Of a DNA stretch of 64,000 bases, positions 8,209-53,679 are shown piece by piece; the first letter of the stretch is position 1, and each line of letters starts with the position of its first letter. Where the stretch lies: NCBI GenBank assembly GCA_965112155.1, contig OZ218106.1. One strand, given 5' to 3'. The DNA is from Podarcis liolepis (Eukaryota). Both the position numbers and the translations under genes were made by a program. A model generated the notes under the pieces. That model made no database searches. It was not told the origin of the DNA and saw only the letters and a program-made list of their open reading frames with translations.

Positions 8209-10729
8209 TATTTATCCTGAACACCAGGCAAAAGATCCTCACATTTCACTGAACTGACATACAGGCAAATGTGGAGGTATCAACACTTTATGTCTTCCAT
8301 AAAATGCATCAGAACCTCCTGGGAACCAGTGTTTTCTCAATGGAGCAAAGCAATTCTTCATTACCAAAACAATGAAACACAACATGCTACCTACCACAGA
8401 ACAGATTACTAGCCATTATTAAGCCAGATTTCTGACCCAGGGTTAATTACAACATTTCTAAATTCAGGTGCAAAATATATGAAGTCATGGAACTGAAGAT
8501 TAAGAACCCAAGAACTTCATGTCCAGGTTCCAGCTTTCCACTGGGCAGTATAAGCCAACCTGGCAGAAAACTAGATTGGAAAGTGTGCTCTTAACCTGCA
8601 GTCAGATATAGGGAAAGAAGTGGTCTCCTGGACATAAAAGTTCCTTGATAAATGAAGAGTGATTAAATGCAACACTCAATACATTTGTAAACAATTGCTG
8701 GCCAAAAACCTCGAAAGAATAACTGCCTAAGACTAGTTAGCCCGGCTACTGAAAGGCTGTCAAGCTTACAGATGGCAGAAGACCAGTGATATATGACCGA
8801 TGCAACTGCAAGAGCCAAGTCTGGATCACCACAGATAAAATAAAAAGTCACTGAACTGAGTGGGAATTACATCAGTAAATGTGCTCAGATGCACTGAAGA
8901 GGAAAAGGTATGTGACAAAATGCCCCACTGTCCAGTTTAAAATTACCACTTTAACAGATAATCCTCTGTAAACACTGGAGCACTCCCACAGCAAAATCTG
9001 CAGAATTAAACTCATAGCATTATTTAAAATATATTTTTGTTAAGCTCAACACAAAAGTTAGCAGCCCTTCCTACCAAGCCATGTGCTATGAGACAATAAA
9101 TATTTTCTGGGATATCTAAACACTGGCCACAATTTTATTTTTATTTAGAAGATAAATAGAACAAAAAAAGCTAAACTAAGTGGTTGAATCTGCAGGCCAA
9201 GCAAGTTATAAATTTTATATAAGTTTAGCTAAAAGAGCCATTTGCCTTGCATCAATTTCAAAGCTTTTTTGTTTCCTGCCATTTTCAAAACATGACAGCA
9301 ATGTCCTATGCATGCTTACCTGGAAGCAGGATAGGTGACCAGATGAAAAAGATAAAACAGGTATCCTACAATTTTAACAAAAATCTGTGAAGATATTTCA
9401 GCAAGTGTAGCTTTGTCAGAGCTCCATCCACTTCTTACATCTTGCCACTCCATTAGGGACAAAATGAGTAGGACTTACTTTCATATATACATGCATAAGA
9501 TAATAGGGAGGGGGAATTCTATGGAAATTAAGCTAATGTGCATAAGAAAAATGTCAGCTTGCATCCCGAGGGAGGTGATCTAATTTAGCAAGTTTATTTT
9601 ACTTGCATTTAGTAAAGAAAACTTTGAAACTGCCTAGTTTGCCTTAACTGTATTTGCAATTGGGCACCCCTTCATTTTTTCTAATGAACTCCTGAAACAG
9701 AACATTTTATGCTGATAAAAATTAAGCATTTGGAAATTTTCCACCCCACATCACTGGCACACACTAATTGAGAGGATATGGCATTAAGTACTCACCAGTA
9801 CATTTTAAAATAAAAAGGAAGATGTTCCTACTCATATTTTCGACTCAGTGCTCAATATTTCATTTTGACACTTGAACAAGAACAGCTTGTACATTTATGG
9901 TATGTCAAAGGCTATTTAGCAAATCCACAAACTGAGTCTTAATATTCAAGCTTCTTTCTTTGTGCAACAGACACAGACAGTATTACTGAGTCACAGGCAG
10001 TCTATGTGCTTTATTCACAACAGTTTTTGGTGGTGTGTGCAGGACTTATCTGCTTTTAAAAGGGCCCAACGGTAATGAAGTTTGCTCTTTCCCATAATTT
10101 GAAGAAAACAAAACTAACACAACTGCTTTATAAGCTCGTTCTTGCACTAGGGGAATGGCTATACATAATTCATGCATTCCAAGTAATTCTCTCCGGAAGA
10201 GGAGGAGTAATTATCCCAGATTCAACAGAAGTAATTTTCCCAGGTGAAATGGATATAGTACGTGGAAGTAAGGAAGATGCTCCCTGTTAACAAGTGTATT
10301 TGTTTAAGTTCATTGTTAACTCAGTCCTCACGGATGTGAAAAACTACCTCCTCCGGATTATGTTTTACCAACTATTACTGTGAAAATTATTGACGCACAC
10401 ACACATTTCTGAAGGTGGGAGCATACAAGGATTACATCAAACCCAATCATTTCCTAATCTGGGAATGACTTCCCCCTCTCCATGTTCATTTACATAGCCT
10501 AATAGCAGAACAAGAGTTTCCAGCTAGTCAATGTACTTTTAAGTTTCTACACTGGCTGGGAAACAATAAAGGCGATTTGGGGAGTGAGGGAGTTAAATAT
10601 CTGTCCGCCTTTTTTTGCAACTGCTTGGTGTTTGCAGTTATCAAATTTATTATCATTTTTTTAAAGGAGTCAATGTTATCTTGTTGCTGGGACTTAAGTT
10701 TGCTCAACTCGCCCCAGAGCTCAGCCCCT

Positions 10730-12340
10730 CCTGCTTGCTGGGTGTCACCACGCGGAAGTTGGGTCGTCTCGCTCGCTCCGAGTGTGCAACGTGTCAAAGC
10801 AGCTCCTCTGCCGAAGAGTTTTGGAGCGCTAGGGAAGCTATACTGAACCTCAGAATGGCTGCAGCGGCCAAAAGAAAGAAGGGATCGGATAGCAAACCCC
10901 AAGCAGCGTGCAGATATTCGGGCCGTGGGCTTCCTCCAGTTCTGCTACGGTGTGGAGAGCGCAACATTTTGCAATGGACTCCATATACCCACAACACCCG
11001 ACTTTTTAATATATATTTAAAAATCCCAATTTCCTCTGTGTTTGCAAACAAACGAGTTGGGCATGTGTGGGGGGGGGGGCGGAATCCAGGCAGGGCTGAC
11101 ACGCATTTCATGAGGCAACGGTATGCCCACGGCCAGACTTACCCCCTTTCACCCCAAAGGCCGGCTCCAGCTTGGCCACCGTGATGACCAGGACTATTCC
11201 GAGAATGAACCAGTCTTTCCTCAGCCTGTCCAAAAAGCCCATGGTGGCGGCGGCGTGGCCGCGATACTCCCGCGGCTGCAGGCAGCTAGGAAAGGGAGGG
11301 GAGGAGGAAGGCGGGGAGTTGGTCAAGACTTCCCTTTGGCCCCTCCTGCAGAAGGGCTGTGCAGCGTGGAAGCAGCAGCAGCGGGGCTACTTAGAAGCTG
11401 CTCCCGCCGCCGCCGCCGCCGCCGGTAGTAGGAACAGTATCCAGTGACAGGAAAAGTCTCCCTGAAAGCCGCCATCACTACCACGCGCCTACTAATAGAC
11501 TCGCACGCCATGTCTGGAAGCCGGCAAGCGACGAGGTGCGGCGGCGGCTGAGGCTGGACGAAGGCAGAGAGAGGCCGGCTCCCGAGAAACGCGAAGCTCT
11601 TCAGCAGTAGTAGCAGCCGCCGCCACCGCGTCGCCGGCATATTGCGCGAAAGAGCCCGTCAGTCACACGGGAGAAAAAAGCCCGCGTCCTCTTTCCTTCA
11701 CAGCGGGGAAGGCGCGCGCGAGAGAAACTCCCGGCAGCCCCTTCGCCCGCCAGCGGCACGCGGGACAGCGAGGCCCCGCGTCTACTCGTGGGGGAGGGGG
11801 AAAGGCAACGGTAACCTCGCGAGCGGCGGTTGGTGCGGGGCTGCGCGCTTCTTCGAGACTTTACGCCCGTTCGCCGACGCGACGCGCTTGACGTGGAGAG
11901 GGCGGGGCGGAGCTTTCAGTTTCCTGGAGTGGGACGCGTTTCCCGGGAGTTGGGCTCGTGGCGAAGAGAGAGGCAGGATTGGCTGGCCGGGTTGTGCGGG
12001 GCGGGGCCTGCTTCTCGGGCACCTGAAGGTGCAAAGCGCGCCGCTATTGAGGGTTTCCATATTTTAAAGCCAGGTGGCCGCCGCTTCGGCTATGAAAGTT
12101 CTAAGGACGTGGGGAAGTGATGGCTGATCTGGACGGGCTGCTAGCGTTGGTGCAAACGGAATCCCCGGTCTGGACCCCTTGCGGAGTAGAAGCGCGTCTG
12201 CTCCCCACCACAAGAATGCATTTGGAAGCTTTACAGAGGAACGGTCTTGAAATGGTTGCAGATAAACGTTGCAAAATAACACATTGCTGTTAAACAGCAA
12301 GCAATGCGGCCCCCTCAAATGGGGGTGCGGGACGTGTGTG
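10730..12340 (-). promoter_or_regulatory. CpG-island promoter / 5' UTR of SLC10A7
   Basis: High GC and CpG density. YY1-like ATGGCGGC (about 11469-11476, minus), GC boxes (GGGCGGGG about 11900 and 12000), (GCC)7 at about 11405-11424. Confidence 0.85.
11143..11242 (-). CDS. SLC10A7: SLC10A7 coding exon 1 ([33 protein letters not shown])
   Basis: Perfect Kozak gccgccaccATGg at 11242 (minus). Peptide matches the SLC10A7 N-terminus. GTAAGT donor at 11142-11137; 100 coding nt, phase 1. Confidence 0.96.
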
Positions 12341-12375
12341 TTGAGATTCCTGCACTGCAAGGGGTTGGGCTAGGT

Positions 12376-14013
12376 CAGGGGTCTGCAACCTTTAAGACAA
12401 AAAGAGCCACTTGGACCCGTTTCCGAAGAAAAAACAACAACTGGGAGCCGCAAAACCATTGCGACATTTAAAACAAATATAACACTGCATACATTGTTTC
12501 TTAGCCCAATGTCATCCTCGTCATTATAAAAATAACTTTTTTGACACTTTTTAATTATTTTTTGTTTGACCCCTCAGAATTACTCCTCCTCATAGAAATA
12601 AACGTTATATTAACAAGTTACCTTTTTTTGAGTGTGTGTTCTTCACTCCCCTTCAAAACAGTAGCTGCAAATTGCAAAGCAATAGCAGCAAATCAGCCAG
12701 CAACAAAGACATGCTATATATGCTGTAAACAAGGTACAAAAACTAATAAGATCCACAACCATTCATAAACATATGTGTTTACATAGAGAGAGCAAAACAA
12801 AAACAAAAAAACACAAAAAGTAGCATAAAATATCATGTGCCTACAACAGTCACATTTGTTATGGTTTGAATGCTTGGTGCCCTGATACATAATTTTAAAA
12901 TTAAATAATTGAGATTACAAAGTAGAAAATTAAAAGTTGTATTTCTTGCTTCCAGGGTATTCTGTGGAGCAGGTATTTTAAAATTTATTTTAAAGACCTA
13001 TACCCCCATCTTTTGAAGAAGGTAAACTCTAAGATGGCTTGTATTTCTTTACCAATCTAGCTTCTCCAAACATAGGTCTCTGCCCCGTTGTTTTCCCATT
13101 TCAATCTTCCTAAAAGCATTTCTGTCTCAAGCAATCATCCTGTCACAGATATAAACTATTTAAACTGATTCCCCCCACCTTTCAGGCCACAAAGGTGGAA
13201 AAGGTGTTGGCGTATCAGGAGCTGGGGGGGGGGGGGAGCCACCAAGTGTGACTGAATGTGTCGAAGAACGCTAAGAGCAAAGTCCTCTTGAATCCCGGAA
13301 GCCCTCTGCCTGACGTCACAGGGTATTAACATGCCCTTACCCTCTTAATGATGTCACCATTAATGGTTATTACAGCAGCAATAATTGACTTCAAACGTCG
13401 CTTGTCCGATTGCCTGTGCGGGCAGGAGCCATTTTGAGCAGTGGGGGGAAAGCCGAAGCGAGCCAAAACTTGGGAGCCGGCCGGCTTCCTTATCAGCCGC
13501 GAACACAAACGGCGCGCGGTGCAAGGTCCGCAGCAGTAGTAGGTCACGAGGAAGGTGCTTCCCCGCGAAAACGCAGACCCGGGTGCCGCGTGAAGGGGGA
13601 CCCCGCTCCCCACCAGTCCCAGCCAGCGGGGCCGGGGGGAGCTGCTGCTGCTGGGAGCCCCCACAACCCCCGAAAGAGGACTCGCTCCAGAGATCCTGGC
13701 GGCTCCCAACCCGGGGTCGCTTCGCCGCGCGGGGCAACAATGAGTGAAAGGCGGCGCACTAAAAACAATGGCTCGCGGGGAAGGCGGGCGCGCGCCGCTC
13801 GGCCCTTGGGGAGCCTTCCTGCTGCCGCTGCCCTGCGCCCAACTCGCGAGGAGAGTGGCGCTGCCTTCTGCTCTCCGCCGCCGCCTCACAGATGACAGCG
13901 ACTGCACGGGAACAAAGGAAAATGCGCCTCCTCCCCTCGCCTCCACCCCGGAGCCGCGGCAAAGGCGTTAAAGAGCCGCATGCGGCTCCGGAGCCGCAGG
14001 TTGCCGACCCCTG
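12376..14013. mobile_element. Non-autonomous hAT DNA transposon (1.64 kb) with internal cargo
   Basis: TIRs CAGGGGTCTGCAACCT / AGGTTGCCGACCCCTG; exact 8-bp TSD GGCTAGGT; inserted into a CR1-like 3' tail. Confidence 0.92.
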
Positions 14014-34346: not shown

Positions 34347-36646
34347 TACTCTGAGTAAGACTGACATTAGCTTTCACCTACCACAACAAAATTTTCCAAA
34401 CATCAGCTCCTCTAAATGCATTACAAACTCCTTTTCAACCTGAGAAGCCTAACCTACATTTCATCATGAAGGGGTTTGAATAAATTTAAAGGTTTGTAAT
34501 ATAATATTACTATTGTTTTTAGCATCCGTCTGTCTCAAGAGACAATACAAGAGCATGTCATTCTTCTTCTGGAGAAGAAAAAGCCAAGGATGTTACTATG
34601 GATATTATGCCAATTTTTAATCTATTTATCTATTTTTGAATGTGAACTCATTTCCTGGAACAAGCCCTTCCAAATTTCATAACCTTTTTTAATGAAAAAA
34701 AAAGTTTCCTCCCCATGACTGCAGCTAAACTTGAAATTGTCATGGGGAGCTTTGTAAAAGGTCAAAAACAGCCAATATTTAGCTTTTCTACAAAGCAACA
34801 TATATTGTGTTGTTAATCACATGGTGAAATCTAACGCTTCTTCATGTGGAGAGATTGTTAGCACTCTAACAATGTTTACACATATTGCCAGCAGCACAAC
34901 AGACAGAGCTTAGATACCTATTAATGTATATTCAATCAGCATGAATCTGAATTCTTAAAAAATAAATGCCAATAAGGCCTAAAAATTAAATTGAAATGGA
35001 TAGTTTCAATTAGTTCAAAATGGAAGAGTTGTTTGGATCAACCTGATTTCCTCCAGGTGCTTTAGACTTCAACCCCCTGCTGGCTCCAAAACAGCCCAAA
35101 ATATCTGCACAAATTTGGTAAACACTGGCTTTGACTATGTGATGTATCTGGACCAACACAAAACCAGAACAACACCAAACAAAAATGTTTTGCATCAAAT
35201 TAATATTACAGTAAGTCAGAGGAAGGCAATGTTTTTTGTTAAGGGTAGGTAGGGATGGGGGAGAAATTATATTCAATTTGCAATTAAAGGTAAATCTAGT
35301 AAATCTGCACTTTCCAAAACAGTACGAGAACCGAAACACAGCCACTTGGGTCCACTTGGAGAGAGACACCATTGAAAACACTCCCATTTCTCCAAAACAA
35401 ACTAAAGAAAATCTCCACAATACAGAACAGGTTCACACAGCATGGAAGGGAAAAGTAAACAAACTATCCCCATCCCCACTAACCCCCTTGGCCTATCACC
35501 CACTATTCTAACACGCATCACAAATTCTCCAGATAAAAACCTGGCAAGCAAAAGGCCTACAGTGGCTAAAAGATGTATACAAAAACAATAAACCCATCCC
35601 AGCACAAGAAATGCAAGACAAACTAGAGGACACCCAAATACCTTGGCTAACACACTATCAATTGCATGCCGTCTTAAACAATCCAGCAGTAAAATCAGCA
35701 GCCACTATGCCCTTGACCAAAATCCTTCTCCTGACAGCAGAGGGACACTACAAAGGGATGGCATCCACAATATACAAAATACTGCTCCAAAATCCCACAA
35801 AGCCCCTTGACTCAATCAAAGAACAATGGGAGCATGACACAGGCTATGGACTAGAATGTGGTCTAAAATTCCCTTTAAGTCCATATCAGCCAAAAGAAGG
35901 GACCTCACTCTGAAACTCACTTACAGGCGGGGCTCAACAGCAAGAAAACTGGCACTGATACGCCCAGGAACCTCACCAAGATGTTGGAGAGGCTGCATCT
36001 CCACAGGCACAAATTTCCACATCTGGTGAGAATGCCTAAAACCCAACCCTTCTGGACAGCAGTCCTATAAGAGATATGCAAAATAACTAAACAGGTATTA
36101 GAACTCACCCCAGAACTGGTCCTACTGAACACCTTCCAAGATCATAAGGACCATTCATATAGAGCTTATAATCCACCTACTCTCAGCAGCCAGAAGCCTC
36201 ATAGCCAGACACTGGAGAGACCTGTCAGGAGTAAACATGGACCAATGGTATCAAATTGTATGGGAAACGGCCTAACTAGAAAAGCGAACCAATAAACTGA
36301 AACTGACATGGGGACAAATAGAAGAGGATGCCTTCACCCCAGTATGGCTCTCCCTTATAACAAACATGGCCCAACAAGACAAGAACCAGAATCCACCGAC
36401 AGCATACGAATCAATCTGGTTTACCTGACCCAGCAAGCCCTCCCCCCCACAAATGCAAACAACCCCCACTGCAGACAACCACAGACAAGCAACCACTCAC
36501 TACCTCTCACTACCAAGGAAATGTAATAAATGAATAGAAAGAGAACCTACCTAGTTGACGCTGAAATAAAATCCCACACGTTTGCTATATAAAAGAATAT
36601 AAGCCTCACTACCCCACCCCTCCTCTCCCCCACCTTCATACTGTGC

Positions 36647-37021
36647 TGTGGGAAAATGATTGCTTGTACATGAGAGCATGAGCAAAGTTCTTATTGTTAC
36701 AGGGTGATCTCATAGCTAGAAGCATCCTTGGAGCATGAATAGCGCGTGAACAGCTCGTGCTGTCCCATATGATTGGCTAACGTAGTATGGTCTGATCGCT
36801 CGCATGGTTTGGTACCAAGGTCTTTATCTGCTGGCTAGAACAAATTGCTTGACTTGTATTTTTTGTATCCTTACTTGGCTTGTATCTTTCTGATTTTCAT
36901 ACAATAAAAGCTGTGCTGCATTAGCCCTAGGAGCTGCCATGTTTCCCTAGGAGCAGCCATAATTCGGAACCTATCTTGGTGTGAGACTGATTTTCTTTGG
37001 ATGCCGAGCTGCAACTCGACA
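36647..37021 (+). repeat. 5' LTR
   Basis: TGTGGG...CGACA; inverted CCAAT (ATTGG, about 36772); AATAAA at 36903; no difference from the 3' LTR seen by eye. Confidence 0.97.
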
Positions 37022-37023
37022 AT

Positions 37024-37038
37024 TGGTGCCCCGTGTGA
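37024..37038 (+). promoter_or_regulatory. Primer binding site, complementary to the 3' end of elongator tRNA-Met
   Basis: TGGTGCCCCGTGTGA, 2 nt after the LTR. Reverse complement of the vertebrate tRNA-Met(CAT) 3' end ...UCACACGGGGCACCA as recalled; 15-nt match. Confidence 0.75.
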
Positions 37039-37300
37039 CTGCCTTCGAACTTCACGTTGTTTTTCAGCACTCACCAACACGTCGTTCATCCACGTAGTGG
37101 ATCCCTGGTGAGTGCTCCCGTGTGACTGCCTTCGAACTTCACGTTGTTTTTCAGCACTCACCAACACGTCGTTCATCCACGTAGTGGATCCCTGGTGAGT
37201 GCTCCCGTGTGTACAACGTTCAGCTCTCACCTCGCCCCGCAAGGGCTGCAGACGCGTCGTTCATCCACGTAGTGGATCCCCGGTGAGAGCTCCCGTGTGA
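37030..37300 (+). repeat. 87-bp tandem repeat in the ERV leader (2 perfect copies + 1 diverged)
   Basis: Unit starting CCGTGTGACTGCC at 37031 and 37118. The third copy shares GTCGTTCATCCACGTAGTGGATCCC.GGTGAG.GCTCCCGTGTG. Confidence 0.93.
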
Positions 37301-37433
37301 ATGTGATTCTGGACTACGTTACGGACTTATCAGCACTTATCTCCGCCCGGACAGGGCAAAAAGGCGACTCTCTCTCATCCTCCTACGGATCCCTCGGTAA
37401 GTGCTCCCTGCTCTTTTTGCAACTCTTGCAATC

Positions 37434-38783
37434 ATGGGAAAATCTCTCTCTGCACCACAGAAAAATTTTTTAAAAGACCTTAAATTCCTTTTGGCCAGTA
37501 ACAACCTTGCTGTTAGGAAAGCTGACCTTAAGTCCCTTATAAAAGCCCTGGACACTCACTGTCCGTGGTTTCCCCAGGACGGAAACTGGGAGTTAGACGA
37601 TTGGAAAAAAATTGGACACTTCTTTCAAAATCATCCGCAGATTGATGTAAAGGTTTTGCATGCCTGGAGTAACGTCTACAAAGCTATGTCGTGCTTAACT
37701 CCTTCAAACATTCTTCTGGCTGCTGGAACAGCTTCTTCAAACGCCCCCCCGGTTCCCGCTTTGCCTGCCTCAAACCTTCCTCCTAAACCGCCGGACATTC
37801 TCTCTCCGGCTCATCCTGTCACTCCCCTGCATTCTTCAAATTCTGCAGCACCCCCCGTTCTTCCACCTCCTCCGCCCAAGGCATCTTCTACCACTCCTCT
37901 CCAAGAATCTCTCCGTGCCGCTGCACCATTGTTGGGTTTTGACTGTACAACTCCTAATCTCTTCCCTGTGATTGCTCCTGCCGCGCCAGGGGGAGGCCCA
38001 GCCCGGCACGAACAGTTTGATTTGAGATTCATAAAGGAACTACATTCCTCTGTCAAGGACAATGGTTTACAATCTCCTTACACCCTGGGCTTGTTTGGCA
38101 CTATTTTTCAACAAAATTTGATACCAGAGGATGTTAAGCTGTTGGCCCGCACTGTAATGCAGCCTCATCAAATGATTTTGTTTATACAAGCTTGGCACTG
38201 GGCCTGCCAACGTCGTGTTGATGGGATTCGGAATAATCTTAATAATGTTGCATTGGCTAATCATCAGGCTGCTTTGGCTGCTTTGGCTGCTGGTGCCGCC
38301 CCACCCCCAGCCCCCGTCATGTTAACCCAAGCTGATGTCCTCGATGGGTTAACGGGAGGAAGCAATTTTCTTACCATTGCCCAACAGCCAACTCTCGACC
38401 CTCAGTATTGGGCAGCCACTACAGCCTCTGCCCAAGAGACTCTGGCCTCTGTCCCTGATGATAAAAATGAGCACGATGGCCAACTGGGCAGCATCAGACA
38501 GGGCCCTACAAAGCCCTATGGACAATTTGTTGATCGCTTGTACAATACCTTCAAGCGGCAAGTTCAGGACCTGGCAGCACAAGAACTGATTGTTCATGCA
38601 CATGAGGACTGTAAGCAAGTGCTGCGCCCTTTGATGACAACATCAAATATAGCCATTGCTGATATGCTTAAAGCCTGCCAGTCAGTGGGCACTGCTAGCC
38701 ACGGCCTGCTAGCCACGGCCTTGTCCTCCGCCGTGTCCCAAAATCCTGCAAAGGCTACAACCTGTTGGATTGACAGTGGCTAA
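37434..38783 (+). CDS. gag: Betaretrovirus-like Gag (MA, Pro-rich region, CA), 449 aa, truncated before NC
   Basis: MGKSLS myristoylation motif; beta-type MA motif CPWFPQDGNWELDDWKKIG; LFPV; CA start FDLRFIKELHSSVKDNGLQSPY; MHR IRQGPTKPYGQFVDRL; CQSVGT. No CCHC knuckle. Confidence 0.9.
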   Translation: MGKSLSAPQKNFLKDLKFLLASNNLAVRKADLKSLIKALDTHCPWFPQDGNWELDDWKKIGHFFQNHPQIDVKVLHAWSNVYKAMSCLTPSNILLAAGTASSNAPPVPALPASNLPPKPPDILSPAHPVTPLHSSNSAAPPVLPPPPPKASSTTPLQESLRAAAPLLGFDCTTPNLFPVIAPAAPGGGPARHEQFDLRFIKELHSSVKDNGLQSPYTLGLFGTIFQQNLIPEDVKLLARTVMQPHQMILFIQAWHWACQRRVDGIRNNLNNVALANHQAALAALAAGAAPPPAPVMLTQADVLDGLTGGSNFLTIAQQPTLDPQYWAATTASAQETLASVPDDKNEHDGQLGSIRQGPTKPYGQFVDRLYNTFKRQVQDLAAQELIVHAHEDCKQVLRPLMTTSNIAIADMLKACQSVGTASHGLLATALSSAVSQNPAKATTCWIDSG

Positions 38784-39042
38784 GGAGAAAATCCAGCGGA
38801 CCTTACCTATTACGTGCCTGGGACACCAGCTGACAGCATCTGCAGCCATTCCAGTCACGCCTCAACTACAGTTTCCTGATTTTAAACTGGTGGATTTACA
38901 ACAAATTCTTGGACAGCTGAATTGGATAAAGAGTTATTTGGACCTGCCCACCTCCACTTTGTCTCCACTATTTTCTGCCCTTAAAGGACATAAGGATCCA
39001 GCGGACAAGATCACAACCACCTCTGCAATGGAAGAGGCCCTT
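38746..39042 (+). pseudogene. pol: pol remnant: RT C-terminal palm and thumb
   Basis: GLTVAKEKIQRTLPITCLG and DLQQILGQLNWIKSYLDLPTSTLSPLFSALKG resemble class II RT motifs (GLxIAxEKIQ..P..YLG; DFQKLLGDINWIRP.L...L..LF..L.G). No YxDD, RNase H or integrase seen. Confidence 0.88.
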
Positions 39043-39644
39043 CCACAGCTGTTCCAGTGTTTCCTGGCACGTTGAAAGGCCATCTTCAACCCTATCGCGT
39101 TGGCCCCCCTTCCCCCTGGGAAGCCACCGTTTCTACCACTTATCGTTACAGTTTTGCCGCCTCTTGTCTGGGAAATGAACCTGGCTTTGAAGGATGCCCT
39201 CGTCAGACTGGCATCGCTTGGATTTTACCCCCCAGATCTTTTTTTCTCCTCCCTCAGGAGTCCTGCCCTATGATGTGTTCCCCTGAGCATGTACAGAGGG
39301 CTGTCTTGGAACTATTGTGGACTCTTGGCAAGGGAGGGGGTGAGGGATTTTAGTGTGTTCCAGTTGTTTCATTTTTGTGCTTTGGCATGGTTCCCGGACA
39401 GAAAGAAAGTTGCAATATGGTTCTTTAGCACGGCCCGCGACTACAATGGGCTCTGTTCTCGACCTTGTTGCAATCCTTTTTAGTTACAGCAAGCGGAATA
39501 TGCTTGAAGCGAAATATGCTTGGCTAGTGCCTTTTTTTAGCTGCTGAGAAAAATGATTTTTAAAAGCTTCTTGAAGCTTTGAGGTTTTTTTTGGTGGTGG
39601 TATTCTAGCATTCTAGTAAATGTTTCATTTAAGATTAGCAATAA

Positions 39645-40391
39645 TATGAAGGACAATCGTATAAGTTTATCACCTGTGTTTTGTTGCTTGCAGTAATCCC
39701 CTTTGCCTTTTCTGGAACCTACATTCTAGGAATAGTGATACCCCTGATATACAAAATAGATAAGCTCCCAGAGGTCCGTTTGCGTAACAGAAGGGAAGTA
39801 CAATCACCTATTTCTCAATATACAGGGACAGCTATCTCTAGGTCCCTTCTGCCTTCTTTAGGTGCAGCCATGAATTACCGTGATTTGCATAAATTGGCAA
39901 ACTGGACAGAAAATTTGTTTAATTCCACCATTTTGGCTTTAAAAATGATTAACAAAGAAATATCAGAAATAAGAAATGTAGTTCTTCAACATCATTATGC
40001 TTTAGATGTGATCCTTGCTTCTAAAGGTGGAATTTGTGCCTTAATTTATTCTCATTGCTGCATGTATATAACTGATCAATCGACCAATATCTCTGCTACT
40101 ATTGATCATATGGAACAAATGATAGCCCATAATCCTTTGAATCCACCTGAAGGTTTTGATCCATGGGAGTGGTTGTCTTCTTGGTTACCCAATGGAGTAT
40201 GGTTAAGAAAGGTATTATTGATTGTAATTGCATGTGTTGCTGGATTCGTCGTGGTGTGTTGTTGCATTCAATGCATACCCTCTTTGATTTCCCAATGCAC
40301 TGCATGGTGGTACCGACCACGGCCCACCACAGGGGTTACAAGAGGAATTTATGTTGCAAAGTGTAGACGCTTAGGCAATGAAGTGTACTAA
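39645..40391 (+). CDS. env: Env remnant: hydrophobic leader + SU C-terminal stub + complete gamma-type TM subunit (no in-frame ATG before 39870)
   Basis: Furin site RNRR (39783-39794); heptad region; ISD-like LQHHYALDVILASKGGIC; CX6CC (CALIYSHCC); Trp-rich MPER; TM helix; CCC cytoplasmic motif; stop at 40391 just before the PPT. Confidence 0.88.
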   Translation, partial: YEGQSYKFITCVLLLAVIPFAFSGTYILGIVIPLIYKIDKLPEVRLRNRREVQSPISQYTGTAISRSLLPSLGAAMNYRDLHKLANWTENLFNSTILALKMINKEISEIRNVVLQHHYALDVILASKGGICALIYSHCCMYITDQSTNISATIDHMEQMIAHNPLNPPEGFDPWEWLSSWLPNGVWLRKVLLIVIACVAGFVVVCCCIQCIPSLISQCTAWWYRPRPTTGVTRGIYVAKCRRLGNEVY

Positions 40392-40435
40392 GGGTCCCTC
40401 TTTTCCTCTAACAATATAAATAAGAAAAGAGGACA

Positions 40436-40810
40436 TGTGGGAAAATGATTGCTTGTACATGAGAGCATGAGCAAAGTTCTTATTGTTACAGGGTGATCTC
40501 ATAGCTAGAAGCATCCTTGGAGCATGAATAGCGCGTGAACAGCTCGTGCTGTCCCATATGATTGGCTAACGTAGTATGGTCTGATCGCTCGCATGGTTTG
40601 GTACCAAGGTCTTTATCTGCTGGCTAGAACAAATTGCTTGACTTGTATTTTTTGTATCCTTACTTGGCTTGTATCTTTCTGATTTTCATACAATAAAAGC
40701 TGTGCTGCATTAGCCCTAGGAGCTGCCATGTTTCCCTAGGAGCAGCCATAATTCGGAACCTATCTTGGTGTGAGACTGATTTTCTTTGGATGCCGAGCTG
40801 CAACTCGACA
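40436..40810 (+). repeat. 3' LTR
   Basis: Preceded by the purine tract AAGAAAAGAGGA; same sequence as the 5' LTR; followed by the TSD. Confidence 0.97.
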
Positions 40811-42736
40811 CTGTGCTCAGCACTAATGTCTCACAACAAATGAAACTGGTTTATAAGAAAGACTATACAACCTAAAAAAGAGAGACAAGGTATGTACTTT
40901 TGTAGACCAAGCAAATCTCTAATAAAAATTTAAAAAAAAAAATAAAAAGTGCTGAATTGGCTCCTCCAGAGTGTTTGCACCACACTGAAACTAGACAGAA
41001 GGTTGTAAGTTGCCCACCTCTGATCTGAATGGAAAACAGTGTGGTAAAACATCTTTATGTGGCTTTAAAATTTCTCTGTTCTCTTTTCCCTGTTGGATGC
41101 TTTGGAGCAAGTAAGGCTGTGCATCTATCTGAGGCCCCTGGTGCCTGGTTTTAGGCACTCACACAGCGCTGACCAAATTTTGGGACCAGTGAAATTAGCT
41201 TTAGTTTAGAAATGCTTCATATCACAGTACAAAACAGCTCTGTATGACTGAAGCAAGAGACTTGCCTGTAATGGGATGGATGCCTTAAGCACTTACTTTC
41301 CAGAAGAGTGTAATCACCTTATGATCATGTAATTGTGATGCTGTATAATTAACTTTCAATCCTTCTGATATGGATGATTTCCATAATGTTCAAAATTATT
41401 TTCTGCCGTCTTTTAATTTTGTTAATATTCATCAAAACCTAATAATATTTCATTCATTAGGAACTGAGTTGAATGTAGAAGGGGCTGTACATACACATCG
41501 TGTATGATTTGTTTCCCCTGATTTGCCAGCTCTGGGTGCCCAGTAGATGGGATGACTGGTTAAATGTTAAGTATTAAGTTAACAATTTTGGCTGTATTCT
41601 CAGAATGCTGCCAAAGGATGTTGGAGCAAAGTTTGTTTGTTTGTTTGTTTGTTTGTTTGTTTGTTTAAATAGAAATGCTGGGCTCAATACCTGCATAAGT
41701 GCCCTGCCATCTCCTCTGGAAGCAAGTCCAGTTCCTTAACACTGAATACAGTTGTAATTCCTCACTGGAGGAGGAAATACCATTTGCTCAAAGGAACACC
41801 ATTACAGATTATTGCTTAATATTGATTTCTTTAAAGAAGAGCCCCTGATGGAAGGCAGTTTTCTTAATAGATGGCAGAGGGCTTACAATATCAAGATCAC
41901 GGTTTTGGTCTTGGGCTGGATGGAGGCCCCAAGATAAAAACCATATGCCCCTCCCCATCTTTCTAGTTAAGCTTGCACAAGTAGGCATGGTGGTGGGTAC
42001 CATGCCCCTTTCACTTGCTTCTGAACATTTATATAGACTTTAGTTCCAGGTGACTACAGTTTGGAGCGTGCCAAGTCAGAAAGACAGTTGGAGGGAAGGC
42101 TATATAGGTTACTTAGGAACCAATAATGGCAGGACTGCCACCTTCATACCCACCTTGTGCACTTGAAAGTTTCTGACTGACTGCAGCTGGAAACAGGGTA
42201 CCGTTCTGGATGGCCCCTAGGTCCAGCAAGCCTCTTCTTAGGCAGTGTCTACACAACAAAAGCCTGCAGGTTGGTTTGCTGTCAGCAGAGTGCTGATAAG
42301 CAACCTAGTTATGCAATCTGAGCACTGGTGGAAGAGGGTTGTGCACTAATACACAACATCTGCCCCCAATGGTAGCTCAGTTTATCCCTCTGCTATTTGT
42401 TGTCTCATCTGTCGTGCTGGAGTTGGAACTCCAAGCAGTGGAGACACATACAATCTAAATAATTCCTCGGCCTAACCTGTCTTTCAGTACTGCCAGATTC
42501 ACTAGACTGTAATGATGCACAGTTTAAAAGTGGAACGATTCCGACTAAAATAGCACCTTGTTCTGTCTTTGTTTCATCCATGCCAGGACACTGCCCAGTC
42601 CTATGTTAGCTAAAAGGGATAGGCATGTTGGATATGTTCAAAGGAATCCTCAGCTATATTGCCTGTGTTTACACTGATGGTCCACGGGTGCCTTAGAAAT
42701 ATATGAAATAAATAAATGCATGGGGGTTAATTAGGT

Positions 42737-42872
42737 CAGTGTTTCCCAACCTTGGGCCTCCAGCTGTTTTTGAACTACAATTCCCATCATCCCTGACCAC
42801 TGGTCTTGCTAGCTAGGGATGATGGGAGTTGTAGTCCAAAAACAGCTGGAGGCCCAAGGTTGGGAAACACTG
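42737..42872. mobile_element. Palindromic hAT-type MITE
   Basis: Near-perfect inverted repeat over most of its length; 8-bp TSD AATTAGGT. Confidence 0.9.
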
Positions 42873-44919
42873 AATTAGGTTACAGAGCCAAATATTATAT
42901 ATATTGGCAAAACAGGTAAGAAACTACTTGCTCTCCTGCCTTAGTACAAACTCCCTGAGCACAAATGTATTTTGAATGTGTTGACTGACACATCTGCCTG
43001 ACACATAGCAGATGAATTGGAAGGATTGTCCTGACCCTCTCAACTACTGAGATATATCACAAATAAATTAGGGTGGCAGGTTCTTCACTTCCCACCAGTC
43101 CAAAAGATCTCAAGTTTCCCTTGGTGCTTTGGGTTTTCCCTAATGCTGAACTATATTATGCCAGGTTTGAGGGAAAGAGATTAAGCAGGAATAAGAGACT
43201 GTAGGACTTGTCCACCTTGACATATGGGATACCTCATCATAAGAAAACAGGAAGAGTCTTGGTGTATCAGACCAAAGGCCCATCTGGTCTAGCTAGCATC
43301 CTGTTCTCACAGTGGCCAATCAGTTGCCCCAGTGGGAAGCCCACAAGCAGGACCTGAATGCAACAGCATTCTCCCCACCCATGGCTCTAAGCATGGTTAT
43401 TCAAAGCCATATTGTCTCTGGCAGTGGAAGTAGAAAGCAGCCGTTATGGCTTGTATATTCCATGAATTCATCTGATCTTCTTATGAAGCCACCCAAGTGG
43501 GTGGCCATCAATACCCTTTCCACTTTTATCCAATTCAATGCCCCAATCACTTTGTGGGTAGTTTTTACACAGTACAAATTCACAGAGAATAATTCTTGTA
43601 GGAAAAGGTCTACATCCAAAAGAGAATGATGGGAGCACTATATGTGTTGTACATGTTGTCAGGGCTTCTTCTCTATAAGGAAATTTATGGAACTCAGTGG
43701 GTAAAGAATGACAGCAATGCAGCAATGTCAGTACTGATGTGCTCCCTTCCATGGGTGAGACCAGGGTTTATGAAGTGATTGAAATCTGGGTAATAGCTTA
43801 CTGGAAAGGTTTATACAACTAGGAATCCAGAATGCATCTTCACCTACAGAAACAAGGCCAATACAAGACTGTCCCTTCTCTCCTCTGCATCTCTTAGAGA
43901 AGCAGGGCAATCATTGTTTCTACCTGATTCCTGATTAGCAGTTTGCTCACATCCCTTCTCACGCTAAGCATATTCCACTTTCTTTGTCTAAGGTGCTGAA
44001 TGGCTATGAATAGTAAGGACAGACTATCTTTAATTATTTTTTAAATTATTAATGGTTTTGTTAGATCCTTTCACTTTTTACATTATATTTTCACTAATGT
44101 GAGTTAAATAAAAATCTACTTGATGTTTCCAGGGAGTTTCTTCCCTCCTTCCCTCCCATGCATTTTTCATCTTTTCATAACATCAGTTCAAATTCTATGA
44201 GCCATAAAAGTTGGTTTGTGACTCTGAGCAGCGGATACTCGGGTACCACTGATGAATGCAAGAGGGGCTGGGCGATTTGGGGGACTGCTAAAACACACAC
44301 ACCAATACACAAACCTTGATTCCAGCTCATAGCACCGGTTTGATGGTCTTCTTTCCACAGTCCGAAAGAATGTACTGATCGTTCTCTTGCAAGCTTCGAA
44401 ACTCCCTATCACCACCACCAAACTCCCGTTGAGGCAGAGCCTCAGGTCAGGGATATCTAGAATGCCAGAAAGTCAGAAAGGAGTTTAAAGGAGCCCACTG
44501 TGTGTCGCAGGGCAGCGAGCTTTCTAGTCAAACAAAATTGGTTCTACGGAAGACTTCTTTGGAACCCGAAAGCTTGCACTGCCCAGCAGTCTGACTTCTC
44601 CATCCTCGGAACCGTTTGGATGTCTTTAGACTGTCTCACTCCCTGTCGAATTCCTAAGCAAATGAAAAGGCTGCCAAGAAGAATAAGTAAAACAGACTAG
44701 CGGCTAAACTGAAATTCCAGCATAGGGAAGAACCATATATTTGGTGGTAGCCGCGGCGGCGGGGGTGTCCTCTGTTAAAAATCACTTTTATTTTATCTTT
44801 TAGTTATCGGTGAGAAATACTTTGGTCAAGTGCTAAGTGGCTCCGTAAACAAGAGCATGTAAATACTCCCTAGGATTTAGAATGAAGTCCAGTAACCAGT
44901 AGTTTACAAATCCAGCGTG

Positions 44920-49699: not shown

Positions 49700-52600
49700 T
49701 AAGATGCCGGATTGCAAGAGGTGAAAGAGGAGGATGGTCTGAACATTTGGGGGCATCTCCTCCCCCTAGTGTCACGCTAGCCTGGAGAGGCCCATGGCAC
49801 CCGTGGAAATCCCACGTGGAACTCCTGCATGAGGCCAAGCGGAAAAGCAATGGCACGAGAGAGACAGGCTGCTGGCTGGCAGGGAGCAGAGCCATCAGCT
49901 GGTCCCAGGCTCTGCTCTGCCCCGCCCTTCGCACCCCCTCCAGCAAGCAGCTCCTCCTCCCGCAGCGCCTGGCCCCTGAAGGCGGGCAGCTTCATCCAGC
50001 CTGCAGAGCGCGACGCAGGAGACGGCAAACAAAGGTGATGGTGCGGGGGAGCGACCGAGGGGAGGCGACGGCACCACCCTCTGGCACGCGCCCACTTCGG
50101 AGGAGGAGGAGGAGAGCGGCACAGGATTCCAATTCCCAAGAGCCACCGCGGCAGGATAAAAACCAGGCGCCAGCGGCAACTCAAGGGAGTCGTGCCAGTC
50201 AGTCTCTGGGGTAGCGGGTGTGTGGCGCGGGGTGTCCTCCCGCTGCACCTGCGCAGTGAAGTCTCTCGGGGCAAACTGCCTCCCCCCCCCCACTCCGCGG
50301 TGGCTAATGAATGATAATAACTCGAATGGAAAGGCTTTCACCTTTCTCCAGACCCCTCCTTCCCTTCGCTCTCTCCGCCTCGTGGAAGAAGAAGGGTGGA
50401 CTTGTCTCTCCCCAGCCCCCTCGCGACAATATTGCAACAGCCCCAACCAGGGAGCTGCCTCAACGTATGAACACAAGCCATGGGAGATGGATACGTTAGA
50501 TTATATTCACACACACACACTCTCACAGCACTGCTCTATGGACTCCGCACAGAGGCAGAAAAAAGCGCAACCAAATACTGTATGTCATCTACATACAACT
50601 ATAGTAAACACTTTTATCCGTCCCACAGAGCTCACCTCCCAGGACAGTAAAGTTCAATCCACATCTCTCTCTCACAGAGACACACACAAATACACACACA
50701 TTCTGCTATGCTTCGAAACAGTCCGCTCTCTCCGTCTTTCAGCCCCTCAGAAAGGACCACGACGTGGCCTCACGGGGACCCCCGCTCTCTCCAGCAACGA
50801 GGTCTCCCTCACTTGCTCTCCACAGGACATTTTCTCTCGCACTTTTCCACCCCGTGTCCCCTCACTCACGCACTTACCCTCCCCTCTCCACACACCATCC
50901 TGCCAACATATTTGTGATGATATATCCCTTTCAGGTTCCCTCTTAGCATTAACGTCTAATATCTATCTCTATCTCTCTCACACGCGCAGCTCATACAATC
51001 CCTCGCTCCCTTCTCCGTCTCCCTCCTCGCGCTCCTCCAGCCCCTCGCTCGGCAGTCACACACGCGCGCGCTCTCTCGCAGGACGCATGCGTCTCGCCTT
51101 GTCAGCCCCGGCTTCGCCCGCGTCCAATGGGCGACGAGCAGAGAGAAACAGAGGGAGACAGAAAGACTCGCTCAGCCCAGTTACGCGGAGGTCTCGCTGG
51201 CTCGCGCTAGGCACCTGCCAAGCCAAGGTGTGCCGCAGCCCAGCGCTGAGGCGGCGTCCCAGCCGCCGAGGAAGGAACAATAGGGCGAGGCTAGAGCGCT
51301 CCTCCCGCCTTTTTTCCTCCCTCTTTTTGCTGCTGGGCGGGCAGGGAGGGGAAGCCGGCGGCCAAGAAAGAAGGCAGCGCTTCGGGGCTCTTGCTCCAGT
51401 TTGAGCAACAGCTGCCGGGGCTCCAAGCTGAGGGAGGCTGGGCTGGGCTGGGAGGGGGCTTCTTGGGGCGCCGGGAGCAGCGGAGGGCGGGCGGGACGAG
51501 GGGCCTCTGGCGCTTCAGGGGGAGGCGCTGGGGAGGGGAAGGAGGGGCGCTGAGGAGAGCCGAGGAAGGCAGGCAAGGAGGACTAGCAGGGAAGGGGCAG
51601 GAGGAGGAGGAGGAAGGGAAGGGACTTTCCCCAAAGAGTTGGGGGGCGTCCTAGTGACAAGGCAGCGAGAGGGGGGGCAAGGCGAGTAAAAAGCCAGCGG
51701 CGAGGCGGCTGAGGGGGCAGTTTGACGGCGGAGAGTGGCGAGAGGAAGAGGCTTCGCCGAAGGGGCAGGCAGAGGACGCGAGAGCCGGCGAGGCGCCTCA
51801 GTCTGACGGGGCGGCGGCGGCGGCCGCTGAGGCAGCAACTTCTCCTCGCGCCTTTTCCCGCCTCTTCGCCTCCTCGCCTTTCCCGCCGGCCACCATGATG
51901 ATGATGTCCCTCAACAGCAAGCAGCCCTTCGGCATGGCGCACGGAGGTGGCGGCGGCGGCGGCCTCCACGAGGCCAAGTACTCGGCCCTGCACTCCGCGT
52001 CGCCGTGCACCTCGTCCGCGGCCGCCTCCGTGCCGTCGGCCAGCTCGCCCAGCATCTCCAACGCCGGCAGCGGGGGCGCGGGCGGGCGCAGCAGCGCGCC
52101 CAGCAGCACCACCAGCAGCAACAGCACCTCGGAGGCCCTGCGCCGCGCCTGCCTGCCCACCCCGCCGGTAGGTCGCTCCGTCGCTCCCGAGTGCGGGAAG
52201 GGTGGGAAGGGGGCAGCCCAGGCGCCGGCATGTTTATTTCATGGCCAGGCAGCAAATCAACCCCGCGCGCCTCCCGCCCTCCCCAAACCCAGCGCAGGCT
52301 TCCAAGGGGCTGCCATGAATTTTTACGACCTGCGATGCTGCTGCCGAGCCGGGCTGGGAGGAGGGGGGGGGGGAAAGCGTCAGAAAGAGAGAGAGAGTTA
52401 GAGTTGCCTAACTGCCCCCCTGCTTCTTTCCCCTTCTTTCTGCCCTCGTTGCTTTCCCACTTTCTCTTTCCTTCTTCCCTCCCTCTTGCTCTTCTCTGCC
52501 TCTCTCCCTCCCTTTTTCTATACATTTCTTTCCCCATTTCTCTCTCTCTTTCCAGCTCTCTCTTTCCCCCTATTTCTATCTCTCTCCTCTCCTCCTTTTC

Positions 52601-53650
52601 TCTTTTCATCTCTCTCTCTCTCCTCATTCCCCCCCTCTCTCTCTGAGCAGGGCTGGGCTGCCTCGGATGGCACCCCGAGGAGCAAGGAGGCGAATTCCCT
52701 CTTGGCAGCAGTAATGTGTGCCTTCTATTTGCAATTGCAGAGCAACATCTTCGGCGGTCTGGACGAGAGCCTGCTGGCCCGTGCGGAAGCCCTGGCTGCG
52801 GTGGACATCGTCTCTCCCGGCAAGAGCCACCACCACCACCCGCCGCACCACAGCCCCTTCAAGCCCGACGCCACCTACCACACCATGAACACCATCCCGT
52901 GCACGTCGGCCGCCTCCTCCTCCTCGGTGCCCATCTCCCACCCCTCTGCCCTGTCCGGGAGCCACCACCACCACCATCACCACCACCACCACCACCAACC
53001 CCACCAGGCGCTGGAAGGGGAGCTTTTGGAACACATCACGCCGGGGCTGGCGCTGGGTGCCATGACGGGCCCCGACGGCTCGGTGGTCTCCACGCCGGGC
53101 CACGCTCCCCACATGGCCAGCATGAACCCCATGCACCAGGCGGCTCTCAGCATGGCCCACGCTCACGGGCTGCCCTCGCACATGGGCTGCATGAGCGACG
53201 TGGACGCGGACCCGCGGGACTTGGAAGCCTTCGCCGAGAGGTTCAAGCAGAGGAGGATCAAGCTGGGGGTGACTCAAGCGGATGTGGGCTCGGCCCTGGC
53301 CAACCTCAAGATCCCCGGGGTGGGATCCCTAAGCCAAAGCACCATCTGCAGGTTTGAGTCGCTCACCTTGTCCCATAACAACATGATTGCCCTCAAGCCC
53401 ATCCTACAAGCCTGGCTGGAAGAGGCGGAGAAATCGCACCGGGAGAAGCTCACCAAGCCGGAGCTCTTCAACGGCGCAGAGAAGAAGAGGAAACGCACTT
53501 CCATCGCGGCTCCGGAAAAGAGGTCCCTGGAAGCCTACTTCGCCATCCAGCCGCGTCCTTCCTCGGAAAAAATAGCGGCCATCGCGGAGAAACTGGATCT
53601 CAAGAAGAACGTGGTTCGGGTCTGGTTCTGTAACCAGAGACAGAAACAGA
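49700..53650. promoter_or_regulatory. CpG island covering the POU4F2 promoter and gene body
   Basis: Very high GC/CpG, especially 51000-52400; CCAAT at about 51124. Confidence 0.85.
51895..52167 (+). CDS. POU4F2: POU4F2 (Brn-3b) coding exon 1
   Basis: gccaccATG; MMMMSLNSKQ...EALRRACLPTPP (91 codons); GTAGGT donor at 52168. The MMMMSLNSKQ start and synteny with SLC10A7 identify POU4F2 among POU4 paralogues. Confidence 0.97.
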
Positions 53651-53679
53651 AACGGATGAAATATTCCGCTGGGATTTAG
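52714..53679 (+). CDS. POU4F2: Putative short POU4F2 isoform starting in the intron (MCAFYLQLQ + exon 2)
   Basis: In-frame ATG 27 nt upstream of the exon 2 acceptor. The 9-aa leader matches the mammalian Brn-3b short-isoform N-terminus as I recall it. Confidence 0.65.
   Translation: MCAFYLQLQSNIFGGLDESLLARAEALAAVDIVSPGKSHHHHPPHHSPFKPDATYHTMNTIPCTSAASSSSVPISHPSALSGSHHHHHHHHHHHQPHQALEGELLEHITPGLALGAMTGPDGSVVSTPGHAPHMASMNPMHQAALSMAHAHGLPSHMGCMSDVDADPRDLEAFAERFKQRRIKLGVTQADVGSALANLKIPGVGSLSQSTICRFESLTLSHNNMIALKPILQAWLEEAEKSHREKLTKPELFNGAEKKRKRTSIAAPEKRSLEAYFAIQPRPSSEKIAAIAEKLDLKKNVVRVWFCNQRQKQKRMKYSAGI
52741..53679 (+). CDS. POU4F2: POU4F2 coding exon 2 (POU-IV box, poly-His, POU-specific domain and homeodomain); spliced protein 403 aa
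   Basis: TTGCAG acceptor at 52740. SNIFGGLDESLLARAEALAAVD, H11 tract, DPRDLEAFAERFKQRRIKLGVTQ, KKRKRTSI...VRVWFCNQRQKQKRMKYSAGI*. Confidence 0.98.
   Translation, partial: SNIFGGLDESLLARAEALAAVDIVSPGKSHHHHPPHHSPFKPDATYHTMNTIPCTSAASSSSVPISHPSALSGSHHHHHHHHHHHQPHQALEGELLEHITPGLALGAMTGPDGSVVSTPGHAPHMASMNPMHQAALSMAHAHGLPSHMGCMSDVDADPRDLEAFAERFKQRRIKLGVTQADVGSALANLKIPGVGSLSQSTICRFESLTLSHNNMIALKPILQAWLEEAEKSHREKLTKPELFNGAEKKRKRTSIAAPEKRSLEAYFAIQPRPSSEKIAAIAEKLDLKKNVVRVWFCNQRQKQKRMKYSAGI

Follow-up and report, generated by a model that had tools for sequence, protein, structure and literature searches.

A short provirus with identical LTRs in Podarcis liolepis

In a 64,000-nucleotide stretch of Podarcis liolepis DNA (contig OZ218106.1, assembly GCA_965112155.1; hereafter the window), an endogenous retrovirus (ERV) spans positions 36647..40810, a total length of 4164 bp. 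Paired TG...CA long terminal repeats (LTRs), a target-site duplication (TSD), a primer-binding site (PBS) and a polypurine tract are all present, enclosing what is left of gag, of the reverse transcriptase (RT) part of pol, and of env. An earlier reading of the letters alone (the sequence-only reading) had proposed a very young, non-autonomous retrovirus of only 4.16 kb, a length that our measurement confirms. The element is a genuine class II provirus of a Podarcis-type lizard; it is young, defective and recombinant, and was most likely mobilised in trans. Its features follow, with MA, CA, SU and TM for matrix, capsid, surface and transmembrane regions and with numbers such as P0034 for related proteins; these relatives are protein gene models throughout, not DNA.

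36641..36646, + strand: 5' TSD, CTGTGC (sequence comparison of flanks)
36647..37021, + strand: 5' LTR, 375 bp, TG...CA, polyA signal at 36903 (exact repeat)
37024..37041, + strand: tRNA-Met-type PBS; first 15 of 18 nt equal the tRNA-Met PBS, last 3 differ
37030..37300, + strand: tandem repeats of the leader, a pair of identical 87-nt units plus one diverged unit
37396..37402, + strand: splice-donor-like GGTAAGT just 5' of gag (motif match only)
37434..38783, + strand: open gag, 449 codons, MA and CA (open reading frame and Pfam)
38770..39041, + strand: RT remnant, palm end and thumb, in the frame next to gag (Pfam RVT_thumb at ~38770-39040)
39039..39239, + strand: SU remnant 1, residues 61-127 of P0034, 95.5% identical
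39270..39454, + strand: probably derived SU segment like the N-terminus of P. muralis P0040 (53/61 codons, one frame change)
39451..39609, + strand: T-rich 159 nt, alignment to SU not significant (protein and DNA shuffles)
39610..39690, + strand: SU remnant 2, residues 296-322 of P0034, in a frame different from TM
39696..40391, + strand: SU C-terminus, furin site and 198-residue TM (TLV_coat, motifs)
40418..40435, + strand: polypurine tract ahead of the 3' LTR (sequence)
40436..40810, + strand: 3' LTR, same sequence as the 5' LTR (exact repeat)
40811..40816, + strand: 3' TSD, CTGTGC (sequence comparison of flanks)

Alignment of the two LTRs, previously judged by eye to be without difference, gave 375 of 375 identical bases with TG...CA ends on both, and the exact 6-bp TSD reported earlier (CTGTGC) indeed flanks both ends, an exact 6-mer match having a chance probability of ~2e-4. 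Because of these ends and the 6-bp duplication, the insertion can be attributed to a retroviral integrase, and the cis-acting signals (LTRs, PBS, leader and polypurine tract) are kept. CpG dinucleotides are retained, as had been stated, with an observed/expected ratio of 0.51 in the element and 0.97 in its leader compared with 0.20 and 0.28 for the 5 kb on either side. The window contains no N and no further copy of the element or of its flanks. Zero differences over 375 bp place the 95% upper bound on age at ~2.0 million years (Myr), using the rate of 1.98e-9 per site per year given in PMC8760935. The element is young; LTR identity bounds its age at ~2 Myr only, which falls short of the "very young" first proposed and does not speak to present-day activity.

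The PBS is unlike the Lys sequences in the tRNA PBS reference table of PMC1084362, where Met and Lys sequences are both given. In the leader behind it, the first two 87-nt units are 100% identical and the third is 62% identical (ungapped), and the same hairpin and donor-like motif recur in each of the three. The units open with an 8-mer equal to the 3' half of the PBS, which thus occurs in four copies; the 8-mer and hairpin repeats possibly arose by template slippage, which could also explain why the PBS matches at only 15 of 18 positions. Folding of the leader gave a weak signal (z = -2.08; 5/100 shuffles equally good), and Rfam and ARAGORN scans found nothing.

Remnants of gag, pol and env

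The gag frame contains Gag_p10, Gag_p24 and Gag_p24_C domains and opens with a myristoylation-type Gly2/Ser6 start; its Gag_p10-type matrix also matches that of Mason-Pfizer monkey virus (M-PMV or MPMV). It has no CCHC motif, no nucleocapsid (NC) and neither PPxY nor PSAP, both of which are present in relatives P0002 and P0003. Relative to its kin it carries three small in-frame gaps (all in-frame by chance ~1 in 27), one of which, by alignment, deletes six residues of the CA C-terminal domain from the helix after the major homology region (MHR). The frame extends to the first NC cysteine and then passes into RT just ahead of the thumb, so that its last five residues are off-frame RT. Gag is also recombinant: residues 181-285 are identical to P. 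muralis P0001 at 105/105 positions, and around residues 343-370 the informative sites change from P0001-like (67:6) to P0008-like (5:13), a breakpoint with a permutation p<=0.0005 (2000 permutations) and p<=0.002 for three further parent pairs. Recombination of this kind normally occurs between co-packaged RNAs.

The RT remnant comprises ~90 codons, 87% identical to P. lilfordi Pol, and has a one-codon in-frame gap in a region without translation. Upstream it is joined to the end of CA, and directly downstream to SU at residue 61 of P0034. Mapping on P0017, P0047 and P0048 agrees with the earlier list of losses: NC, protease (PR), the RT fingers and palm, the connection, RNase H and integrase (IN) are absent from the element. 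Two candidate additions were rejected. An integrase remnant 3' of the thumb proved a by-eye lookalike, the stretch being SU (pol score 47.7 against a shuffled maximum of 53.5, n=15), and TAL-effector matches to the RT remnant are sums of non-significant repeats.

Env is fragmentary but less depleted than the statement that nearly all of SU is missing would have it. The SU pieces kept correspond to residues 61-127, 296-322 and 424-456 of the 657-residue relative P0034, or 127/436 codons (29%), and survival rises to 43% if the P0040-like segment is counted. That segment (39270-39454) scored 266 against P0040, with a shuffled maximum of 53 (n=60), and the corresponding stretch of P0034 is unlike it. 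Only 1/15 P. muralis env models has the P0040-type segment; since the P0034 type is found in 3/15, spanning two subfamilies ~80% identical in SU, the P0040 type is probably the derived one. Following it, 39451-39609 looks by eye like eroded SU, a reading that found no overall support (protein scores 23-30 against a null of ~30; 21/100 DNA shuffles as good); for its first 95 nt 2/100 shuffles were as good, one among six tests. Taken whole, the stretch matches neither SU nor pol nor any other part of the window significantly, and it is left unassigned.

The TM region has a TLV_coat match, a furin site, a stretch resembling an immunosuppressive domain (ISD), a CX6CC motif and a membrane anchor, and its stop codon comes three codons before that of relatives. 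The CXXC region of SU, CWxC in full-length relatives, is deleted. Residues 1-60 of P0034, with their own hydrophobic N-terminus, have no match in the window, so the env leader is lost, and the 248-residue env frame has no Met ahead of the furin site. A signal peptide considered at 39660-39710 is an off-frame reading of SU remnant 2 (39610-39690). The signal peptide-SU deletion junction of the sequence-only reading accordingly disappears: the hydrophobic start of the 248-residue frame overlaps SU read in another frame, and it is RT that adjoins SU. Because SU is broken up, CXXC is gone and no Met precedes the furin site, a functional Env appears unlikely. Altogether, coding capacity for NC, protease, the RT active site, RNase H and integrase is gone, as is a translatable Env.

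A family of relatives in wall lizards

The search with gag returned 14 clusters, 12 of them named and all of these Podarcis, and that with env returned eight, six from Podarcis and two from snakes, in keeping with the original description of a lizard element. Across most of its length TM shares 92.8-97.5% identity with 12 P. muralis models, and it shares 84% with P. lilfordi; together with the gag residues identical to P0001, this suggests P. muralis or a near relative as host. The env cluster has 23 members, with at least eight chromosome-scale contigs among the 15 members listed. A TM/env search of 50% clusters gave 15 matches of 1192 at 1e-30; the six named among ten inspected were Podarcis or snakes only, and three more had been named earlier. 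Podarcis gene models of the family, including XP_077783262 (P0008), XP_077779349, XP_077783312 (P0040), CAI5761955 and others, bear automatic names in RefSeq, UniRef and GenBank ('ERV group K-like', 'PABLB Env-like', 'syncytin-like'). They belong to the same family, but none carries the element's combination of lesions. P. lilfordi model P0017 has MA, CA, NC, PR, RT, RNase H, IN and Env, and complete-looking P. lilfordi models are 74-87% identical to the element. P. muralis has two 657-residue env models with a hydrophobic N-terminus that, judged by eye, is a signal peptide. No description of this Podarcis family was found in the literature searched, in which subscription titles were thinly covered and one result list was seen only in its top part; the lacertid family thus appears to be undescribed, as the uncharacterised squamate family of the earlier account implied.

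The same env clade reaches further than this pol. In a snake gene model (P0022, XP_058032621, Ahaetulla prasina) the pol ahead of it is of class I type (MLVIN_C, GPY), which is direct evidence for exchange of this env between classes of pol. In another snake gene model (P0321, Pseudonaja textilis) it follows a dUTPase piece.

A second truncated gag end, with one zinc knuckle, is shared by 14/24 gag models (P. muralis P0001, P0004-7, P0009-10, P0012, P0023 and P0028-32). A gap at the CA N-terminus is shared by 11, and P0008 has a similar one. These models may form a larger defective subfamily, or else have a predicted intron in common. In Zootoca vivipara, P0100 (XP_034972146) lacks NC, PR and the RT core, passing from the end of CA to the RT thumb, a join that could be either a parallel deletion or a gene-model artefact.

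A class II pol with a gamma-type env

Several lines of evidence bear on the classification of the element. The class II markers of pol are RVT_thumb in the element itself and, in relative P0017, the presence of YMDD and absence of GPY/F. A relative's integrase matched structures 3jca/7usf best (190 bits) and then 5ejk (147), structures of mouse mammary tumour virus (MMTV) and Rous sarcoma virus. Two NC zinc knuckles are found in 5/24 relatives and none in the element. In a pol tree of 31 rows (30 picked named non-human records plus the element, whose row fills 11% of columns; no classified reference virus such as MPMV, MMTV or Jaagsiekte sheep retrovirus), the RT remnant grouped with P. lilfordi (98/91), Zootoca (100/100) and the turtle Natator (95/98), within a 10-row reptile clade of turtle, snake and lizard (92/96, not starred) and apart from bird and four mammal-associated rows (81/76). 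TM fell within a lacertid and snake clade in an env tree of 19 named non-human rows.

A tRNA-Lys primer is typical of betaretroviruses. Further betaretroviral markers are dUTPase and G-patch, of which the latter is missing in some betaretroviruses, as PMC1224870 describes. No PF00692 (dUTPase) match was obtained in P0017 (E<=0.01) or in P0049, P0024 and P0002 (E<=10), a search that a degenerate remnant could escape, and P0049 and P0017 have neither a G-patch motif nor a Pfam match to one. As no dUTPase or G-patch was detected in its relatives, its PBS is Met-type and its pol lies in a reptile clade, the element is best described, on these sequence characters, as class II and beta-like, and is for now better not filed as a Betaretrovirus or as type D.

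CX6CC is present in the element and in all 19 relatives checked, and CXXC in relatives; the first TM cysteine is at residue 81, there is no cysteine-flanked fusion loop, and a profile search of env found syncytin-2 and -1 as best matches. Gamma-type Env is defined by CX6CC, ISD, CXXC and a furin site (PMC9967133), alpha-type Env by a Cys-flanked fusion loop without CXXC (PMC13568524), and group 1 of the EnvR supergroup in Podarcis by CX9CC in TM (bioRxiv 2024.03.17.585361, whose tabulated env may include this one). By its motifs, env is of the main gamma type, neither alpha-like nor CX9CC EnvR group 1. An alpha- or filovirus-type env, suggested by a single-sequence PDB ranking, was rejected: there is no cysteine loop, relatives have CXXC, and the profile search favours syncytins. 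The architecture first proposed, a beta-type gag/pol with a gamma-type env, holds as class II plus gamma type (Gag_p10, CA, thumb, IN ranking, CX6CC, ISD-like stretch). Of its likening to the type-D betaretrovirus env swap, the pairing of beta-type gag with gamma env architecture stands; the missing dUTPase and G-patch of relatives, the Met-type PBS, the reptile pol clade and the squamate TM clade speak against it.

Probable deletion before integration

In the sequence of events that we favour, the element RNA would already have been deleted and recombined at the time of packaging; Gag-Pol of a complete family member would have packaged, reverse-transcribed and integrated it within the last ~2 Myr; and the element would be one product of a defective, recombining set of genomes of this family in wall lizards. 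Deletion before integration, already suggested by the earlier reading together with mobilisation in trans, gained support because the gag/RT join is shared with P0008, the SU segment is shared with P0040, gag is recombinant, and 11 coding lesions lie between unmutated LTRs. Among 24 lacertid gag-bearing models, P0008 alone ends in the same RT-derived residues and, again alone, has a nearby CA variant in common with the provirus, yet it is a different element (MA 65/90, ~77 residues of CA gone). The 11 lesions and the leader duplication are accompanied by no LTR difference; an origin of the internal differences after insertion would lead one to expect ~9 to 56 LTR differences (a rough range, inflated by unsampled relatives), and the closest block, TM (5/198 residues differ), alone roughly predicts ~9. 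An intact, possibly active helper had also been postulated: complete-looking relatives do exist in P. lilfordi, at the 74-87% identity given above, but no P. muralis pol is among the best 120 of 250 pol matches, which leaves an active helper hypothetical.

Several points weigh against this scenario. Every relative compared is a gene model rather than DNA, and what looks like a genomic deletion at the end of P0008, or in the other truncations that models share, may instead be a predicted intron; if the P0008-type join arose by splicing, however, it would still predate integration. Protein models showed no second copy of the complete 4.16-kb structure (lizard genomes were not searched at the DNA level), and with no pol among those best 120 matches, no helper is identified in P. 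muralis. The LTR-difference estimate uses sampled relatives only and would shrink with closer, unsampled copies. LTR gene conversion or assembly collapse could underlie the LTR identity.

A bolder version, which we think unlikely, is that a class II retrovirus with a squamate-specific gamma-type env is still active in wall lizards, and that defective, recombining genomes live off it as parasites. In these the multiplied leader hairpin and donor unit would confer a packaging or dimerisation advantage, as in defective-interfering RNAs; this copy would then be a polymorphic insertion of an ongoing burst. The persistence of 657-residue env frames in P. muralis and the occurrence of the env clade on class I pol in snake P0022 both touch on this version.

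Alternatively, the truncated Gag may itself have a function, as a cis-acting aid like that of IAP 1Δ1 or as a dominant-negative restriction factor, by which the element was kept or spread. The open 449-codon frame, its three in-frame gaps (the ~1 in 27 above), the kept Gly2/Ser6 start and the cis-acting fusion protein reported for IAP 1Δ1 in PMC6466679 would fit. The lone RT gap is in-frame too, though RT is untranslated; the CA C-terminal domain lacks six residues after the MHR, NC and late domain are missing, and protein databases favour open frames, all of which makes this improbable. Lower still we place reverse transcription of a spliced subgenomic RNA that retained a packaging signal, with some joins being splice junctions, itself a form of mobilisation in trans. 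Alignments suggest that the gag/RT join falls at a GT-containing Cys codon and adjoins an RT Gln codon in relatives, and there are donor-like motifs in the leader and an acceptor-like one at 39257; applying the GT-AG rule needs the relatives' DNA, however, and small in-frame gaps and SU replacement are unlike splicing.

Less probable again is that a full-length provirus integrated and lost its interior later, with gene conversion or assembly collapse making the LTRs identical. LTR identity has no read-level check, the two 87-nt leader units are likewise 100% identical, and protein models yielded no other complete copy of the structure. This explanation requires 11 separate lesions plus complete LTR homogenisation, accounts neither for the gag breakpoint nor for what the element has in common with P0008 (the join) and with P0040 (the SU segment), and on the assembly side meets a window without N. 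An L1-made processed copy of viral RNA can be dismissed: the flanks do resemble a decayed long interspersed nuclear element (LINE) 3' end by eye, without Pfam or Atlas support, but the LTRs are complete, identical and TG...CA-ended, the TSD is 6 bp and the junction has no poly(A) tail.

Comparison with known elements

Both ingredients of the element are already known, the mobilisation of deleted ERVs in trans as well as the pairing of class II pol and gamma env in reptiles, and no general principle is changed. The chicken EAV-HP deleted proviruses (blue-egg insertions) and ART-CH are similarly class II, with identical LTRs, a 6-bp TSD, gag and env remnants and no pol, and are described as helper-mobilised by inference (PMC3747184, PMC4607243); they are avian and alpha-related, whereas the present element is from a lizard and its relatives have CXXC and no Cys-flanked fusion loop. 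Mouse IAP 1Δ1 and ETn/MusD are likewise class II, deleted or non-coding, and mobilised in trans by coding copies (PMC6466679); there trans-mobilisation is experimental, while here it is inferred, and the element keeps env remnants and has relatives with 657-residue env frames. Deleted ruminant class II families moved in trans are reported in PMC11831830.

A parallel already described from a reptile is PyERV of Python molurus, a squamate ERV that also combines class II, beta-like gag-pol with a gamma-type env (PMC3758190) and for which PMC1224870 reports no dUTPase detected. Its env is a typical murine gammaretroviral one according to a review, in contrast to a TM in the lacertid/snake clade; PyERV was compared by description only, and no Python row is among the named pol matches listed. 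The same combination is known from birds, IAP and type D viruses (PMC3758190, PMC9967133), and reptiles have been shown to carry class II ERVs (PMC8922424). With type D viruses (MPMV and simian retrovirus, SRV) the element shares a Gag_p10 MA and a gamma-type env, and its relatives share two zinc knuckles and PPxY/PSAP; it differs in the lack of dUTPase and G-patch in relatives, the Met-type PBS, the reptile pol clade and another env source.

The element suggests that wall lizards, whose retroviruses have been little studied, harbour a young, multi-copy family of class II ERVs, and that squamates have an env clade which appears combined with pol of class I as well as of class II. Should the insertions prove polymorphic, they would offer population markers and a natural helper/parasite system in a well-sampled wild vertebrate.

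Genomic surroundings

By eye, the flanks (~35000-36640 and 40817-40950) resemble a decayed L1-type LINE 3' end, with an AATAAA and a tail rich in A on the right-hand side on the same by-eye reading. A LINE identity was not retained: a six-frame Pfam search gave no family match (one weak unrelated match), and there was no Atlas match. An inverted repeat at 42736-42873 (59-nt arms, 97% complementary, 20-nt spacer) resembles a miniature inverted-repeat transposable element. A second CpG island, at 10000-14000 of the window (observed/expected 0.77-0.86), is a probable promoter region. A POU4F-type homeobox gene (Pou and Homeodomain) lies in a CpG island at 51800-53679 (+), on the same strand as the provirus and ~11 kb 3' of its 3' LTR, so that the insertion sets an LTR ~11 kb upstream of this gene.

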